Shown: one piece after another, positions 14,884 to 22,575 of the stretch | Position numbering within the stretch: position 1 is the first letter of the stretch | Layout: each line of letters begins with the position of its first letter | NCBI GenBank assembly: GCA_030606485.1 | Contig: JAUWGH010000001.1 | Coordinates: forward strand, 870,001 to 902,000 | Length of the DNA stretch: 32,000 bases | DNA from: Promethearchaeota archaeon | GTDB lineage: Archaea; Asgardarchaeota; Lokiarchaeia; Sigyniarchaeales; SOKP01 | Direction: 5' to 3' | Made by a program: the position numbers and the translations under genes | The notes under the pieces: model-generated | Database searches by the model: none | What the model saw: only the letters and a program-made list of their open reading frames with translations | What the model was told of the DNA's origin: nothing

Positions 14884-15861
14884 TTATAGTAGAATCACGA
14901 TTACTCCCGTTATTGTCAATATAACACCTAAAAATCCTTTTTTTGAAATTTTTTCGCCATTAATTAAATAATCTAGTGGAAGTGCGAATAAAGGACTTGC
15001 ACTTGCTATTATGGCTATAAAGGTAGCTCCTGCTTTTCGAACTGCTTCAGTATATAGAAAAGCACCTATTGAAGTACCTATAATAGAACCAATAATTAAC
15101 CAATACCACATTTGGGTAGACTTATTTTTTCGATGGGATGATTTAATTTTGGTCTGAATATGCTCTTCTCTCCATATAATTAAAGTTAAAATCAAAAAAA
15201 TGAATGGAAATCGGATTACATTTCCAATAATAGAGCTGAATGCTTCTATTTGTAGGATACGGTCAATTTCATTCAGAGCGTATTCAATTAATACAGCACC
15301 AATTGCCCAACCTAATGATGCTATCAAACCAAAAATAATTGTTGGTGAAAATGTTCGTGAATTGATTTCAAAATTGTTAAAATCCTTGGAAACTGAAGTT
15401 TGATCCCCATTAGAAACATTGACATCCTCCAGATTAATTTTAGAGGTCGCAATAATTACAACCCCAATCCCAATGAAAAGAATTGAAATAATTATTCTAA
15501 TATCAAACGGATAGTCAAGAAATATCATTGATATGATAAATGTAAATAGTGGAAATGTCATTGAAATAGATAAAGCTTTTGCGGTCCCCAACTCTTTTTG
15601 AGCCTTAAGGTATGATGTATCACCAATGACTTGTCCGAAAATAAAACTCAAGATTAATATGAACCATAAAGTCAAAGGGAGCAAAAAAATATGAAAAAAT
15701 ACTTCAAATACTAAAGCTAAAATGATAAATGTTAAAGTTCCAATCCCTGTGCGAAAAAAATTTATAAAAGAAGGAGATGCTTCATGTTCAGTTTTTCTAA
15801 ATAGAATGTTAGATATTACAAAAGTAAGTACAGCAAAAATTGCAAATAATTCACCGGTCAT
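14884..15861 (-). CDS. DMT/EamA family transporter
   Basis: About 10 hydrophobic helices in two repeats, with GDTSYLKAQKELG and EKISKKGFLGVILTITGV. Confidence 0.85.
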   Translation of the reverse strand: MTGELFAIFAVLTFVISNILFRKTEHEASPSFINFFRTGIGTLTFIILALVFEVFFHIFLLPLTLWFILILSFIFGQVIGDTSYLKAQKELGTAKALSISMTFPLFTFIISMIFLDYPFDIRIIISILFIGIGVVIIATSKINLEDVNVSNGDQTSVSKDFNNFEINSRTFSPTIIFGLIASLGWAIGAVLIEYALNEIDRILQIEAFSSIIGNVIRFPFIFLILTLIIWREEHIQTKIKSSHRKNKSTQMWYWLIIGSIIGTSIGAFLYTEAVRKAGATFIAIIASASPLFALPLDYLINGEKISKKGFLGVILTITGVIVILL

Positions 15862-16026: not shown

Positions 16027-17574
16027 ATGAGTAAGAAAGCAGAAGAACCTATGAAAAATAACGAAAATGAGGAGGAAGAAAGCGAAAAACCAATTGTAGT
16101 TAAAGCTGAAGCTTATAAAACGATTATATTATATGCAAGCAGATATGCTAACCAAGCAATACCTCCAGCCGAATGGAAAGAGATCTATGGAATTTTAGTT
16201 GGGCATATTACTGATGCTGTAGTTATTGTTGAAAGAGCTGAAGCTCTCACATTTGGGCATAGCACCGATGTTCAATTAGATGAAAGACATTATGGTTTTA
16301 TTGAATCTATTGAAAATAAATTATATGAAGAAAACCAAGGTCGTTTTATTGTGGGTTGGTTTCATAGTCACCCTGGTTTAGGACTGTTTTATTCATATGT
16401 TGATTTAATAAATCACATCGGCTTTCAAGGGAAAAATAGAGATGCTTGTGGATTGGTTTTTGATCATACTTTGTTGGGGAAAAAGAAAAGAGAAAAAGTT
16501 ACTAATTCAGAACATATGATTACCAAATATGACACTGGGTTTGAAATATATCGAATGAATGATGTAAATATGGATATCAATGATCCTGGATTCGAAAATA
16601 ATTATCATAAAGTTGATTATTTTATTGATGGATTGAATAAATTCTTTTTTGCGAATGTGATGACTGAACTTTCATCTTTAGTTACAAGCGGAAAACCTTT
16701 ACAATCAGCATATGGAGAAAATGTTTCCAGTTATACACCGCAATTCACTCATCATCCAGAAGAAATCCATGAATATTTAAATAAAGAATCAGATATTTAT
16801 CGCAAAAATATTTCTCAAGAAACTATGCCTGAATTAAACGAAATTCCTTTAGAGATAAACGGAGAATTTGAAATGAAAGATATTTTTCGTGACGCCCCTG
16901 AAATTATGCAGTCAGAGAAACATGACAACTCTCAAAAATTGAAAATGGCTGATGAATTATTTTTTGAGGGGAATCAAGCATTCAGACAAAAAAATTCATT
17001 TGAAGGAGTTGAAAAATATAAAAAAGGTTTGAAAATTCTTAAAGATATTAATAAAATTGACAAGGTAATGGAATATTTGAGCAAATTAAGTGAAAATTGT
17101 TTACATAATAACCATTATCCATTAGCTGAACAAAATTCTGAAGAACTATTTAAAATTGCTGAATCTAATGGATCTTTATTCTATATGGCAGGATCTAAAT
17201 ATATAATTGGTTTTATTAAAATAATAAAAAATTCCATAAAGGAAGGATTAGAAGACATCCAACAAGCTGCTATATTCTATGAAAATACTATGGATTTTTA
17301 TGGAACAGGTTTATGCAATCAAAAAATTGCGGCAATTTATTCTACTCATCTAAAAGATATTGATAGGGCTTCTCTATTTTTTCTTGAAGCATTAAAAAAT
17401 TTTAATAAAGCTCTTGAAAAGATTCATCCATTAAGAATAACAGTTTGGGATAGTCCAAAACACATTATGGAAAGAATTAATAATCTAAAAGAAACTATTA
17501 AAAAAAATCTAAATCAGATAACCGACCTAAATGTTAAAAGTAAAATTGAATCAGAACTAAAAAATTTCGAATAA
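16027..17574 (+). CDS. JAMM/MPN+ metalloprotease domain fused to TPR/alpha-SNAP-like helical repeats
   Basis: E52 plus VGWFHSHPGLGLFYSYVD matches the HxHx7Sx2D motif. Residues from about aa 305 to the end form helical TPR-like repeats. Confidence 0.82.
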   Translation: MSKKAEEPMKNNENEEEESEKPIVVKAEAYKTIILYASRYANQAIPPAEWKEIYGILVGHITDAVVIVERAEALTFGHSTDVQLDERHYGFIESIENKLYEENQGRFIVGWFHSHPGLGLFYSYVDLINHIGFQGKNRDACGLVFDHTLLGKKKREKVTNSEHMITKYDTGFEIYRMNDVNMDINDPGFENNYHKVDYFIDGLNKFFFANVMTELSSLVTSGKPLQSAYGENVSSYTPQFTHHPEEIHEYLNKESDIYRKNISQETMPELNEIPLEINGEFEMKDIFRDAPEIMQSEKHDNSQKLKMADELFFEGNQAFRQKNSFEGVEKYKKGLKILKDINKIDKVMEYLSKLSENCLHNNHYPLAEQNSEELFKIAESNGSLFYMAGSKYIIGFIKIIKNSIKEGLEDIQQAAIFYENTMDFYGTGLCNQKIAAIYSTHLKDIDRASLFFLEALKNFNKALEKIHPLRITVWDSPKHIMERINNLKETIKKNLNQITDLNVKSKIESELKNFE

Positions 17575-17674: not shown

Positions 17675-18331
17675 GTGATTTTTATTCCTAGAAGAAAAAC
17701 AAAAATAAAGTTTAAGAGAAAGATTGCTTGTATCCATCTTGAACCAGCAGGAGATGTGTCTAATTGCTTACAACCATTATGTATTTGTTCAACAAGAGAT
17801 TTAATGCTAGGATCTCATGGTTCTTCAGGTGCATATGTATGTCAGGTATGTGAAGATTATGACCCGAATTCAAATGTAACATTCAATGAAGTATATAAAA
17901 AAAGCAAAAAGATTGCTGAGAAAAAAATTCCAATAGTAAAAGAAATAGAAATTAAAGAGTTAGAAGTTGAATTATTAGAAGATATTGATTTGGATGTAAG
18001 TGAATTCGAAGAAGAGGAGGATGAAGAGTCGAAGGCAATTAAATTTAAAAAACGCTCAAAAGGAACTTCAAAAGGAAGTAAAAAAGAAATTAATGAGATG
18101 CTTACATCGGAGTGCCCTTATTGCGGCGAATTTTTTGAAGATCTATCTGCTCATAAGGCTATTTGTGAATTTGCTCCTTCTAAAAGTAAGATGATAAAAA
18201 CTAGAGGAAGAAAACCCAAACCTCCAACTGAAAAACCAAAAGATGAACAGAAAGGGGAGGTATGTCCTTATTGTGGGAAAACTTTTTTGAGATTAAGCAG
18301 GCATAAATGTAAAAAAGCTCCAAAGAAGTAA
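17675..18331 (+). CDS. Multi-zinc-finger, Lys-rich protein
   Basis: N-terminal Cys/His cluster, an acidic tract, CPYC..H...C and CPYC..H.C fingers, and an RGRKP motif. Confidence 0.7.
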   Translation: MIFIPRRKTKIKFKRKIACIHLEPAGDVSNCLQPLCICSTRDLMLGSHGSSGAYVCQVCEDYDPNSNVTFNEVYKKSKKIAEKKIPIVKEIEIKELEVELLEDIDLDVSEFEEEEDEESKAIKFKKRSKGTSKGSKKEINEMLTSECPYCGEFFEDLSAHKAICEFAPSKSKMIKTRGRKPKPPTEKPKDEQKGEVCPYCGKTFLRLSRHKCKKAPKK

Positions 18332-18392: not shown

Positions 18393-19313
18393 ATGTCTAA
18401 TCAAGAGAGTATTTATTACTGCCATCCAGTCTTTAGACCTCCTTCAGAAGCATATTCTCTTTTGATTCAAGCAACTGAAGGCTGTTCATTTCGGTGTACT
18501 TTCTGTATGTCAAACTTACGTAAGAAATTCATAATCAGAGACACTAAAGATATAAAGAAAGATTTGGATGTTGGAAGAAAAATTCATGGACCCAATATAA
18601 AAAAGATTTTCTTCTTGGATGGAAACGCAATGGTAATGTCCACGGAAAGATTATTAGAAATAACAAAGTATGCAAGAAGATTATTTCCATTTGTAAGATG
18701 TGGAGTATACGCTCACGCGAAAGATATTCTTAAGAAGTCTGATGAGGAATTGAGAGAATTAAATAAGGCAGGTTTAGGAATTGCCTATGTTGGATTCGAG
18801 TCTGGATACGATAAATTACTTAAAATGATGAATAAGCATACAACTAAGGAAGAGCTAATTTCAGCGAGTAAAAAATTAATGAAATCAGGTATTACACTTT
18901 CTGCAACATTAATATTAGGGTTAGGGGGTGATAATAAAGATTTATCTGAACTCTCTGCCATCAATTCTGCGAACTTAGTAAATAAAATCTGCCCAGATGA
19001 TGGCACACTTTGGTATATTGCTTGTTTAACTCTTATGGTACCTCCCGGTACTGAACTCTTTAAAAAAAAAGTAAAAAATGAATTTCACGAGATGGGAACT
19101 TTAGATATTTTAAAAGAATTATATCAATTTATTGAAAATATTAATTTTAAGAATAATCCTAATGCAAATTGCGTTTTTCGTACTAACCACGCTTCTAATT
19201 ATTTACCTATAGGAGGTATTTTAGATCAAGATAAATTTAAAATTCTTAAAACCATAAAAAAGGGTATAGAAAATCCGAGTATTTTGAGACCCGAATCCTA
19301 TCGTGCATTATAA
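18393..19313 (+). CDS. Radical SAM protein
   Basis: CxxxCxxC (CSFRCTFC), RPPSEA, FFLDGNA, GFESG and HASNY. Confidence 0.9.
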   Translation: MSNQESIYYCHPVFRPPSEAYSLLIQATEGCSFRCTFCMSNLRKKFIIRDTKDIKKDLDVGRKIHGPNIKKIFFLDGNAMVMSTERLLEITKYARRLFPFVRCGVYAHAKDILKKSDEELRELNKAGLGIAYVGFESGYDKLLKMMNKHTTKEELISASKKLMKSGITLSATLILGLGGDNKDLSELSAINSANLVNKICPDDGTLWYIACLTLMVPPGTELFKKKVKNEFHEMGTLDILKELYQFIENINFKNNPNANCVFRTNHASNYLPIGGILDQDKFKILKTIKKGIENPSILRPESYRAL

Positions 19314-19348: not shown

Positions 19349-20089
19349 CTATTCTTCAAAAATTACAGTTTTAGTTTCTTTTATATAAACTCTTATCCAT
19401 GAATCTTTTTCCTTAATCATTTTTTTAATAATTTTTTCAAGCTCATATTCATTAATTAGGCATTCTTGGCTCAAGTCATAGAGGGACATTATATCCGAGG
19501 AAGCTCCGACTTCATTTACTTTCTTTTTTACTAATTCTGATTGTAATTTTTCAAAAAAGTTACTAAAAATGTTAAGTTTATCAGATTTAGCTTTCAAAAT
19601 CAAGGAACTGGTTGTTTCAATAACCTGGTTATAATTTAAGAAATTATATATTCCTAAGAGTTCATACGATTTTTTAATATAATCTAAAATAAGATTAATT
19701 TTTTGATTGATATCTTCTAGAAGTGATTTGTTTTTTTCCTTTAGAATTTGATTTTTAATAGATACATATTTTTTTAACACTTCTTCTAAATTTTCAGGAT
19801 TAAGGGTTATATAATTCATATTTAATAATTTAATTTCATAAGAATTGCGGAATTCTAGGATTTTTTGATTTATTAATTCATTTAATTCATTAAATCTCTG
19901 TAAGTAGGGCCCCAATCCAAAATCTTTATTTTCTCTGCGTAGTGTTAAGGCAGATTGACATTTATTTAAAGCAGATAGTAAATCATTTTCTGATAACTTT
20001 CGCTCAATAAAATTTTGATAAAAATTTAACTTTTGTTCGATATCTTTTTTACTTTTAAATTCTTTCGTTAACTCTCTAAAATATTTCAT
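19349..20089 (-). CDS. Helical-repeat protein with a C-terminal PCI-like winged helix
   Basis: All-helical N-terminal part. The C-terminus IMSLYDLSQECLINEYELEKIIKKMIKEKDSWIRVYIKETKTVIF fits a PCI winged-helix pattern. Confidence 0.5.
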   Translation of the reverse strand: MKYFRELTKEFKSKKDIEQKLNFYQNFIERKLSENDLLSALNKCQSALTLRRENKDFGLGPYLQRFNELNELINQKILEFRNSYEIKLLNMNYITLNPENLEEVLKKYVSIKNQILKEKNKSLLEDINQKINLILDYIKKSYELLGIYNFLNYNQVIETTSSLILKAKSDKLNIFSNFFEKLQSELVKKKVNEVGASSDIMSLYDLSQECLINEYELEKIIKKMIKEKDSWIRVYIKETKTVIFEE

Positions 20090-21173: not shown

Positions 21174-21524
21174 TTAATTTCGTGAACCACAAAATGGGCA
21201 AAATTCAGAATCCCCAATTGGTTTTCCACAATATTTACATTTTTTAGCAGAAACATCCATTTCCTTCTTTTCTTCTTCTTTTACTTCTTTTTTTTCTCCT
21301 GGCCAATGATAATTAATAATAACCCCGCTAACAACCAAAATTATGAATAATATAATATAAATTTCATATCTCATTGGAATAAATGTATCTATAAAATTTA
21401 ATACTGCTTCAATCCATAATTTCATCACTTCTCCGATTGGAGTTAAAACAACTTTTGAATATAGAAAAATGACTCCAATGAAGTCTGCAATCATTCTCAA
21501 AATATCAACTTGCAGTAATATCAT
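21174..21524 (-). CDS. Small membrane protein with a C-terminal zinc ribbon
   Basis: Hydrophobic segments followed by KKCKYCGK..FCPFCGS. Confidence 0.7.
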   Translation of the reverse strand: MILLQVDILRMIADFIGVIFLYSKVVLTPIGEVMKLWIEAVLNFIDTFIPMRYEIYIILFIILVVSGVIINYHWPGEKKEVKEEEKKEMDVSAKKCKYCGKPIGDSEFCPFCGSRN

Positions 21525-22058
21525 TTAGTTTGCACCTCCATCTTTACCAAAAGTAGATTCTGGTATATATACCTTCTCTTCCTTCTTTTCTATTCTTTTG
21601 CCAAACTCAACTTCAATTAACTTCCAAATTTTTGCAACTATTATTAAAGCATAAGCTCCCAAATAAAGCAATACTATTCCAGCAAAATCAAATGTAACTC
21701 TTCCAAGCCCCGGAATTTCAACACCAAATGCTGTTGCACCACTAAATTTGTAACTCCATAGATAAAAACAGTGCGCGACTACTAATAAAATACTAAATAC
21801 TATTTTCCTTCTTGATTCTTTTGGAGAAGACCATGAAAAAAATGCTAAACCACTTATTGTTAAGCCTAATGCTACAAGCCAGAATATAACAACAGCAATA
21901 TTTCCTTTAGCTATTTCGATGTCCAATATTTCATCTGGAGGTATAGGTATTACCATTTTATCCACATAATCAAATGTTAAGGCTGGTATCAACATAGTGG
22001 TTGTCATATATATAGCCATTCCAATAAAACCTCTGAAGATATTCTTCATTCCTCCCAT
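21525..22058 (-). CDS. Four-TM hypothetical membrane protein
   Basis: Four hydrophobic segments. It abuts its neighbours with 0-1 nt gaps. Confidence 0.7.
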   Translation of the reverse strand: MGGMKNIFRGFIGMAIYMTTTMLIPALTFDYVDKMVIPIPPDEILDIEIAKGNIAVVIFWLVALGLTISGLAFFSWSSPKESRRKIVFSILLVVAHCFYLWSYKFSGATAFGVEIPGLGRVTFDFAGIVLLYLGAYALIIVAKIWKLIEVEFGKRIEKKEEKVYIPESTFGKDGGAN

Positions 22059-22059
22059 T

Positions 22060-22575
22060 TTATGGACCTCCCAATGTTAGTGGTATATTTTTTAATTCAA
22101 CACTAAAAAAAAGTAATCGATATGTATAATAAGCAGAAATATTAAGATCCATTGTAAATGTTGGGGGATGAAAAATATCAATATCACCTGATGGAATAGA
22201 GAAATCCTCATCGGTAGCTGTAAAATTTCCCTCAAACTCAACACCGGGTCCAATCTCTGGATAAACTTCCTCATTATACATGATAATATGAGATAACGAT
22301 ACATTATAAGTCATATTAATTGAGATTCCTATCCTTAATTCATCAAGTGGAAAATATCCTGCATTAGTTATATTGAAAGGTATTGAAAGATACATAGGTT
22401 GGTAAAAATTTAATTGTGCAGTTATAGGACCAGACGGTATTTCTATATTTTCAGAAAAATCACTAAACACGGCTACAGCAGAGAGACCACCGAATAAACC
22501 TGTAAGAGTAAGAGAAATTGTCATCACCAATAAAGTAATTCTAAAAATTATACGACATATTTTTGAAACTCCCAT
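22060..22575 (-). CDS. Signal-anchored extracellular beta-rich protein (possibly LEA-2/WHy-like)
   Basis: N-terminal TM helix, the pattern IPFNITNAGYFPL and five N-x-S/T sequons. Confidence 0.6.
   Translation of the reverse strand: MGVSKICRIIFRITLLVMTISLTLTGLFGGLSAVAVFSDFSENIEIPSGPITAQLNFYQPMYLSIPFNITNAGYFPLDELRIGISINMTYNVSLSHIIMYNEEVYPEIGPGVEFEGNFTATDEDFSIPSGDIDIFHPPTFTMDLNISAYYTYRLLFFSVELKNIPLTLGGP

Follow-up and report, generated by a model that had tools for sequence, protein, structure and literature searches.

A lineage-specific Rpn11-type MPN+ protein with an ordinary TPR arm in Lokiarchaeia

Why does an Rpn11-like isopeptidase of an Asgard archaeon end in a long stack of helical repeats, and are these repeats related to alpha-SNAP? 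The question is raised by one gene on a stretch of 32,000 nucleotides from a Promethearchaeota archaeon (contig JAUWGH010000001.1, positions 870,001 to 902,000), referred to here as the window. In our contig numbering the window is C10:870001-902000; its G+C content is about 28% and it belongs to a 3.75-Mb assembly of 13 contigs whose completeness is rated 100%. The gene encodes a protein of 515 amino acids, which we call the MPN-TPR protein. Our reading, to which we give a probability of roughly three in four, is that it is a lineage-specific paralogue of the Rpn11-type MPN+ isopeptidases which carries an ordinary TPR docking arm and likely acts on the archaeal ubiquitin-like protein. The parts of the gene are given below, where A1 is an alignment of 42 family sequences with identities to the MPN-TPR protein of the window as low as 47%, and A2 is an alignment of the C-terminal TPR domain.

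16027..17574, + strand: whole gene, MPN+/JAMM-linker-TPR protein of 515 amino acids (open reading frame list, translation)
16087..16689, + strand: Rpn11-like MPN (JAB) domain, residues 21-221, including conserved inserts and a closing helix at residues 205-221 (Pfam JAB, AlphaFold2, Foldseek, phmmer)
16180..16182, + strand: codon of E52, the general-base glutamate of the JAMM site (invariant in A1)
16363..16404, + strand: JAMM zinc motif H113-x-H115-x7-S123-x2-D126 (four residues invariant in A1)
16690..16911, + strand: predicted disordered acidic linker, residues 222-295 (low model confidence, variable length and sequence, acidic)
16828..16881, + strand: conserved short acidic-hydrophobic motif within the linker, with L270, I273, P274 and F281 invariant (A1)
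16912..17571, + strand: C-terminal TPR domain, residues 296-515, ten helices (AlphaFold2 on A2, structural matches)
17242..17370, + strand: residues 406-448, the segment that the initial annotation aligned to alpha-SNAP (13/43 identities; Pfam SNAP match below the cut-off)

Database searches returned 361 homologues of the MPN-TPR protein. The best 120 are 494-631 amino acids long and cover 90-100% of the query, and the closest two (93% and 90% identity) belong to Promethearchaeota/Promethearchaeia archaeon entries, that is, to Asgard archaea of the Loki type. Homologues bear the automatic JGI name 'RPN8/RPN11 / TPR repeat protein', and our literature searches found no paper describing the MPN-TPR fusion.

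The catalytic half was readily assigned. Pfam JAB (PF01398) matched residues 21-132 with 42.7 bits against a cut-off of 22.5 (E 5.8e-11), and the same model matches 42/42 family members. E52, H113, H115, S123 and D126 are all invariant in the 42 sequences of A1. The stretch 74-89, which is largely invariant as well, is found at the position of the Ins-1 loop of Rpn11-type enzymes. When the MPN part of the AlphaFold2 model (residues 23-221, modelled with moderate confidence) was compared with known structures by Foldseek, it matched Rpn11, CSN5, BRCC36 and CsRpn11, the enzyme of Caldiarchaeum subterraneum (PDB 6FJU, 6FJV, 6FNN; PMC6043591), with E-values of 4e-8 to 1e-6 and a probability of 1.00. 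A phmmer search of PDB sequences gave CsRpn11 (1.4e-9), yeast Rpn11 (6e-8) and human PSMD14 (7e-6), with weaker matches to CSN5 and BRCC36 (about 1e-4) and AMSH (2e-3). The order of sequence similarity is thus CsRpn11, then Rpn11, then CSN5 and BRCC36, then AMSH. Judged from its sequence, the domain is an intact MPN+ of the Rpn11/CSN5 type and apparently an active metalloprotease.

The initial annotation had described a complete JAMM motif in an Rpn11/CSN5-like context (VGWFHSHPGLG), followed by a linker and helical repeats. This description holds: the string is present, the five JAMM residues are invariant and JAB scores above its cut-off, while the models place a low-confidence stretch at residues 220-297 ahead of ten helices at residues 293-512. 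The confidence over residues 220-297 (predicted local distance difference test, pLDDT) is below 50. Both the length and the sequence of the linker vary among the family members, the median net charge is -9, and the linker is predicted by the model to be disordered.

The C-terminal domain, folded alone on A2, was modelled by AlphaFold2 as ten helices with a pLDDT of 95.5 and a predicted template modelling score of 0.90. In the model and in structural alignments it is a stack of helix-turn-helix units matching solved TPR domains, as is typical of the TPR superfamily. An exhaustive VIA-align search ranked Pins first (Z 20.0, root mean square deviation (rmsd) 3.0 Å over 172 residues), then LGN (18.6) and 3gw4 (18.4), followed by BtubC (17.4), NASP (16.8), Sec17 (16.5, with an rmsd of 6.4 Å) and the kinesin light chain KLC1 (16.3), and further down RapH (15.4), alpha-SNAP (14.0) and MalT (13.6). 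Foldseek likewise placed Pins/LGN, BtubC, RapH and kinesin light chain ahead (E about 3e-4); alpha-SNAP came 28th and Sec17 32nd. The domain is a TPR domain of the generic LGN, kinesin-light-chain or Rap type and not a SNAP homologue in the specific sense.

This ranking bears directly on the function that the initial annotation had proposed, in which the C-terminal half is a SNAP-like adaptor coupling deubiquitination to an AAA+ ATPase (NSF- or Cdc48-like) or to the disassembly of helical bundles or membrane complexes. At the level of Pfam, SNAP (PF14938) does reach 29 of the 42 members, from sub-threshold to borderline (best E 9.6e-7), and in the structure search Sec17 and alpha-SNAP do reach Z 16.5 and 14.0; however, Rgg_C reaches more members (36, best E 8.6e-8) and TPR_12 matches 12. 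On the protein of the window SNAP scored 14.6 bits against a cut-off of 25 over residues 403-461, covering 58/282 model positions, and TPR_12 matched weakly as well, with 15.1 bits against a cut-off of 30.1. Homologues scored 24.5-29 bits on SNAP over about 60 positions, and across the family the match extends over at most some 60-90 of the 282 positions, whereas the whole domain has 220 residues. Rgg_C exceeds its cut-off of 27 in some homologues (29.2 and 32.5 bits). The same residues were assigned to SNAP model positions 30-87 in the protein of the window and to 86-148 in homologues. Since the match comes in two registers, it behaves as expected of a periodic repeat and not as an orthologous alignment. 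A search of PDB sequences with the family profile gave SGT2 (0.008), an Rgg-like Listeria protein (0.01) and STI1 (0.02), and alpha-SNAP only at 0.2-0.4.

The Pfam SNAP model also proved to be unspecific. In the same genome it matched 14 stretches in other TPR open reading frames with up to 43 bits, and among 14 well-known prokaryotic genomes without SNAP it fired in 8, including E. coli and B. subtilis. The gapless alignment of residues 406-448 to alpha-SNAP, on which the proposal was built, could be reproduced: 13 of the 43 positions are identical and the BLOSUM62 score is 44, although the alpha-SNAP string in this comparison is the one given by the initial annotation and not a reference sequence. 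A score of 44 is the best among 1.04 million 43-residue windows in the long open reading frames of the genome, but the runners-up follow at 39, 39, 36 and 36, and a phmmer search of PDB sequences with residues 400-465 gave no match at E <= 10. The alignment is reproducible, but not clearly beyond chance or general repeat likeness. The initial annotation had itself stated that equally good matches to unrelated TPR families such as MalT, Rap and LGN would refute it. In VIA-align, Pins, LGN, BtubC and NASP stand above Sec17, and RapH stands above alpha-SNAP; LGN, BtubC, NASP, kinesin light chain and Rap align at a lower rmsd and no less well. Such equal or better matches to unrelated TPR families refute the SNAP/AAA+ interpretation on its own terms. 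The alpha-SNAP likeness is generic repeat similarity only, a role with AAA+/NSF or in membrane complexes is not supported, and we consider the SNAP-like adaptor extremely improbable.

Some further observations concern TPR proteins and this domain. Several TPR-rich open reading frames of the genome exceed the Pfam SNAP cut-off of 25 with 30-43 bits, among them C13:51034-53243 and C5:162091-164014. A carboxylate-clamp TPR of the Hsp70/90 EEVD type, prompted by the SGT2 and STI1 matches, was rejected: by eye, the residue at the clamp lysine position, which precedes the conserved Asn of repeat 1 by four residues, is hydrophobic. A structural zinc site made of C358, H363 and C430 was also rejected, the repeats bearing these residues being too distant in helix order.

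Next, we consider the ubiquitin system of the genome, whose genes lie on the same contig as the window.

C10:752606-752860, - strand: ubiquitin-like gene, product ending in GG plus one residue
C10:380617-383323: E2 (UQ_con) gene adjoining an E1-like gene of 534 amino acids

The GG at the end of the ubiquitin-like product is followed by one extra residue, so the product needs C-terminal trimming. Judging from its family and its intact site, the MPN domain would hydrolyse the isopeptide or C-terminal peptide bond that follows the Gly-Gly of this protein. The flexible acidic linker would tether the MPN domain to the TPR domain. The TPR arm, as its closest structural relatives suggest, probably takes hold of an extended peptide in its target or partner and in this way directs the protease.

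The taxonomic range of the MPN-TPR protein is narrow. In our sample of 301 Asgard genomes, the profile of the TPR domain (E <= 1e-10) found a single copy in 64/68 genomes of one GTDB family and in 2/7 of the neighbouring family, both in one genus, whereas 28 other Asgard families (about 226 genomes) gave no match. A set of 1.84 billion representative proteins yielded no more than 16 matches at E <= 1e-30 and 43 at E <= 1e-10. Ten more distant matches in a single stretch were scanned with Pfam, and seven of them, 475-755 amino acids long, have an N-terminal JAB; those that carry a name come from Promethearchaeota or Lokiarchaeota bins. Five JAB genes are present in the genome of the window; each retains an intact JAMM site (MPN+) and differs from the others in its helical C-terminal tail. 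The four others lie outside the window:

C10:796372-799212, C10:810557-811630 and C8:324358-325524: four additional MPN+ paralogues with long helical or coiled-coil-like tails, including one tandem pair

Genomes of this GTDB family have 4-10 JAB matches each (2 in one bin that is 85% complete), compared with 1-4 elsewhere in the phylum. The MPN-TPR protein is one product of a local MPN+ expansion and not an ancestral eukaryotic-signature protein.

Downstream of the protease gene we found two genes, of which the first is its most constant companion.

17675..18331, + strand: orphan protein of 218 amino acids that combines a Cys-rich N-terminal domain and an acidic stretch with two C-x2-C-x9-H-x3-C fingers (directly downstream, co-directional)
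18393..19313, + strand: radical SAM gene adjoining the zinc-finger gene (Pfam Radical_SAM)

Linkage was counted in 80 loci of relatives; for the zinc-finger gene the denominator is the number of loci with at least 900 nucleotides after the protease gene. The zinc-finger gene follows the protease gene directly on its 3' side and on the same strand in 74/74 loci, with a median gap of 97 nucleotides. The same arrangement recurs in the two loci of the neighbouring family and in two divergent ones (hhalign E 2e-29 and 8e-24). The radical SAM gene, whose product has no equivalog in NCBIfam, is present in 53/64 loci. Its orientation changes in the neighbouring-family and divergent loci while the protease and zinc-finger pair stays, so that its adjacency to the zinc-finger gene is co-directional, convergent or divergent in different lineages. 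All 7 genomes of the neighbouring family have the zinc-finger gene. The pairing is one-sided: the protease always accompanies the zinc-finger gene, and the reverse does not hold.

In the zinc-finger protein, C19, C36, C38, C56 and C59 of the N-terminal domain are conserved, as are D105, L106, E110, F111, E112 and E113 of the acidic-hydrophobic stretch. The first finger is absent from two aligned loci of the neighbouring family (L087 and L088). Pfam gave generic zinc-ribbon, C2H2 and C2HC matches only, the best PDB match was the finger of a viral Gn tail (E 0.0026), and look-alike clusters in the Atlas carry PF28519 MTNAP1_ZnF. The C-x2-C-x9-H-x3-C spacing of this family is also that of the C17orf80 finger (PMC10445727). 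An identity of the fingers as ubiquitin-binding UBZ4 was set aside, all zinc-finger signals being generic and none ubiquitin-specific. On gene linkage, the zinc-finger protein is the leading candidate for a partner or substrate of the protease, and the two may touch physically. A predicted complex of the full-length protease (A1) with the zinc-finger protein (alignment A3) scored 0.00, which weighs neither way.

So constant a neighbour also raises the possibility that the protease does not act on ubiquitin at all. It could instead share another pathway with the zinc-finger protein and the radical SAM enzyme, where it might, for instance, process or deconjugate the zinc-finger protein in a modified form. 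JAMM enzymes outside ubiquitin pathways are established (Mec+/CysO, QbsD), and those of bacteria remove sulfur-carrier or other tags in a similar manner; the invariant zinc-finger link and the adjacency of the zinc-finger and radical SAM genes in three orientations would fit such a role. However, the MPN domain is nearest to Rpn11, a true ubiquitin-specific enzyme, its Ins-1-like stretch (74-89) is nearly invariant, the genome holds a ubiquitin system, and the zinc-finger and radical SAM genes are also found paired where there is no protease gene. We regard a role outside ubiquitin as unlikely. A broader proposal joins the protease, the zinc-finger protein and the radical SAM enzyme in an undescribed Lokiarchaeial pathway. 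Here the TPR arm would dock on the zinc-finger protein, perhaps on its acidic-hydrophobic stretch; this stretch resembles the linker motif of the protease, so both could compete for the TPR groove, and the protease would remove ubiquitin or another tag from the zinc-finger protein or its cargo. This pathway is a tentative idea, which we hold to be possible though doubtful.

Several findings weigh against the reading of the protein as a ubiquitin-directed Rpn11-type enzyme with an ordinary TPR arm. On the contig, 130-500 kb separate the protease gene from the ubiquitin, E1 and E2 genes, and the four other intact MPN+ paralogues could serve the ubiquitin system instead. One complete genome of the neighbouring family (4.36 Mb) has no MPN-TPR gene, and its zinc-finger and radical SAM genes stand head-to-head in the same syntenic block (metallophosphoesterase, polyprenyl synthase). 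Since this pair also occurs without the protease, the linkage may partly reflect the birthplace of the gene in a conserved stretch of chromosome. As for the arm, a few homologues do exceed the SNAP cut-off (29.0 and 26.9 bits), and all these TPR-clan repeats may be distantly related.

A second neighbour raises the question of a larger complex.

19349-20089, - strand: PCI-like helical protein of 246 amino acids (weak Pfam hints)

In 50/60 loci this gene is found no more than 4.5 kb downstream of the protease gene. Of 35 homologues of its product, 22 have ParD-like matches and 9 show a faint Pfam PCI match (best E 0.003). Together with the protease it could be taken for a proto proteasome-lid, COP9 or eIF3-like module, in which the MPN-TPR protein forms an obligate complex with the PCI-like protein. 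But the PCI signal is not significant by sequence in the copy of the window, the gene is on the opposite strand, and all five MPN paralogues are MPN+, so no MPN- partner is evident. Among the 301 sampled genomes, the 246-amino-acid gene was found in 49/68 of the GTDB family; there was none in 13 genomes of four genera that all carry the MPN-TPR gene, and none in the neighbouring family. Since the gene is missing from four protease-bearing genera, an obligate MPN-PCI complex is unlikely, and we judge a lid-like module of this kind quite improbable.

The rest of the neighbourhood is described here for completeness. Three consecutive small genes (116, 177 and 171 amino acids; 21174-22575, - strand) match no Pfam or NCBIfam family except for a weak zinc-ribbon match, and the block is kept in 44-49 of the 80 loci and more weakly in the neighbouring family. 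In about 50 of the 80 loci two small genes stand directly upstream of the protease gene; on inspection by eye they resemble the two halves of a thiamine-diphosphate decarboxylase (for example L006:4804-5854, + strand). The window has an EamA transporter gene (14884-15861, - strand) in their place.

The origins of the eukaryotic ubiquitin system are one reason for studying Asgard archaea. An Rpn11-type enzyme with its own TPR arm indicates that one Lokiarchaeial family expanded and specialised its set of deubiquitinases. Since the MPN-TPR protein is confined to a narrow lineage, this was a parallel invention and the protein does not stand at the origin of the lid, CSN or SNAP systems. Pfam SNAP matches in prokaryotes are to be read as generic TPR and not as evidence of SNARE or NSF machinery. 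The protease and the zinc-finger protein offer a clean, testable pair of enzyme and partner.

Compared with known systems, the arm resembles alpha-SNAP/Sec17 in being a TPR-like stack of helical hairpins with a local similarity of about 60 residues, but it has no full-length match to them, the register is inconsistent and they rank below generic TPRs. The TPR domains of LGN/Pins, kinesin light chain, BtubC and Rap/Rgg/PlcR are its best structural matches (Z 15-20), and these are domains that dock peptides or proteins; they share only 10-15% identity with it, however, and none is fused to a protease. On the catalytic side, the protein shares the MPN+ fold and the complete JAMM site with CsRpn11 and eukaryotic Rpn11/PSMD14, which are the best matches by sequence and top matches by fold, and as with CsRpn11 the host genome has an archaeal ubiquitin system. 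CsRpn11 consists of a short domain on its own and its gene is part of a ubiquitin operon, whereas the MPN-TPR gene lies far from the ubiquitin genes. Rpn11 ends in lid-bundle helices and pairs with the MPN- protein Rpn8, whereas the MPN-TPR protein has a TPR domain of 220 amino acids on a long linker and its genome has no MPN- paralogue. AMSH/STAMBP and BRCC36 likewise combine a JAMM catalytic domain with a helical protein-binding module that sets the site of action. They differ in the module itself, which is an N-terminal MIT in AMSH (three faint Pfam matches among the 42 members of the MPN-TPR family) and a C-terminal coiled coil in BRCC36, and in their weaker sequence similarity (E 1e-4 to 2e-3). 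The MPN-TPR protein represents a known enzyme type in a lineage-specific and uncharacterised form, and it parallels the JAMM enzymes of eukaryotes, each of which has gained a targeting module of its own.

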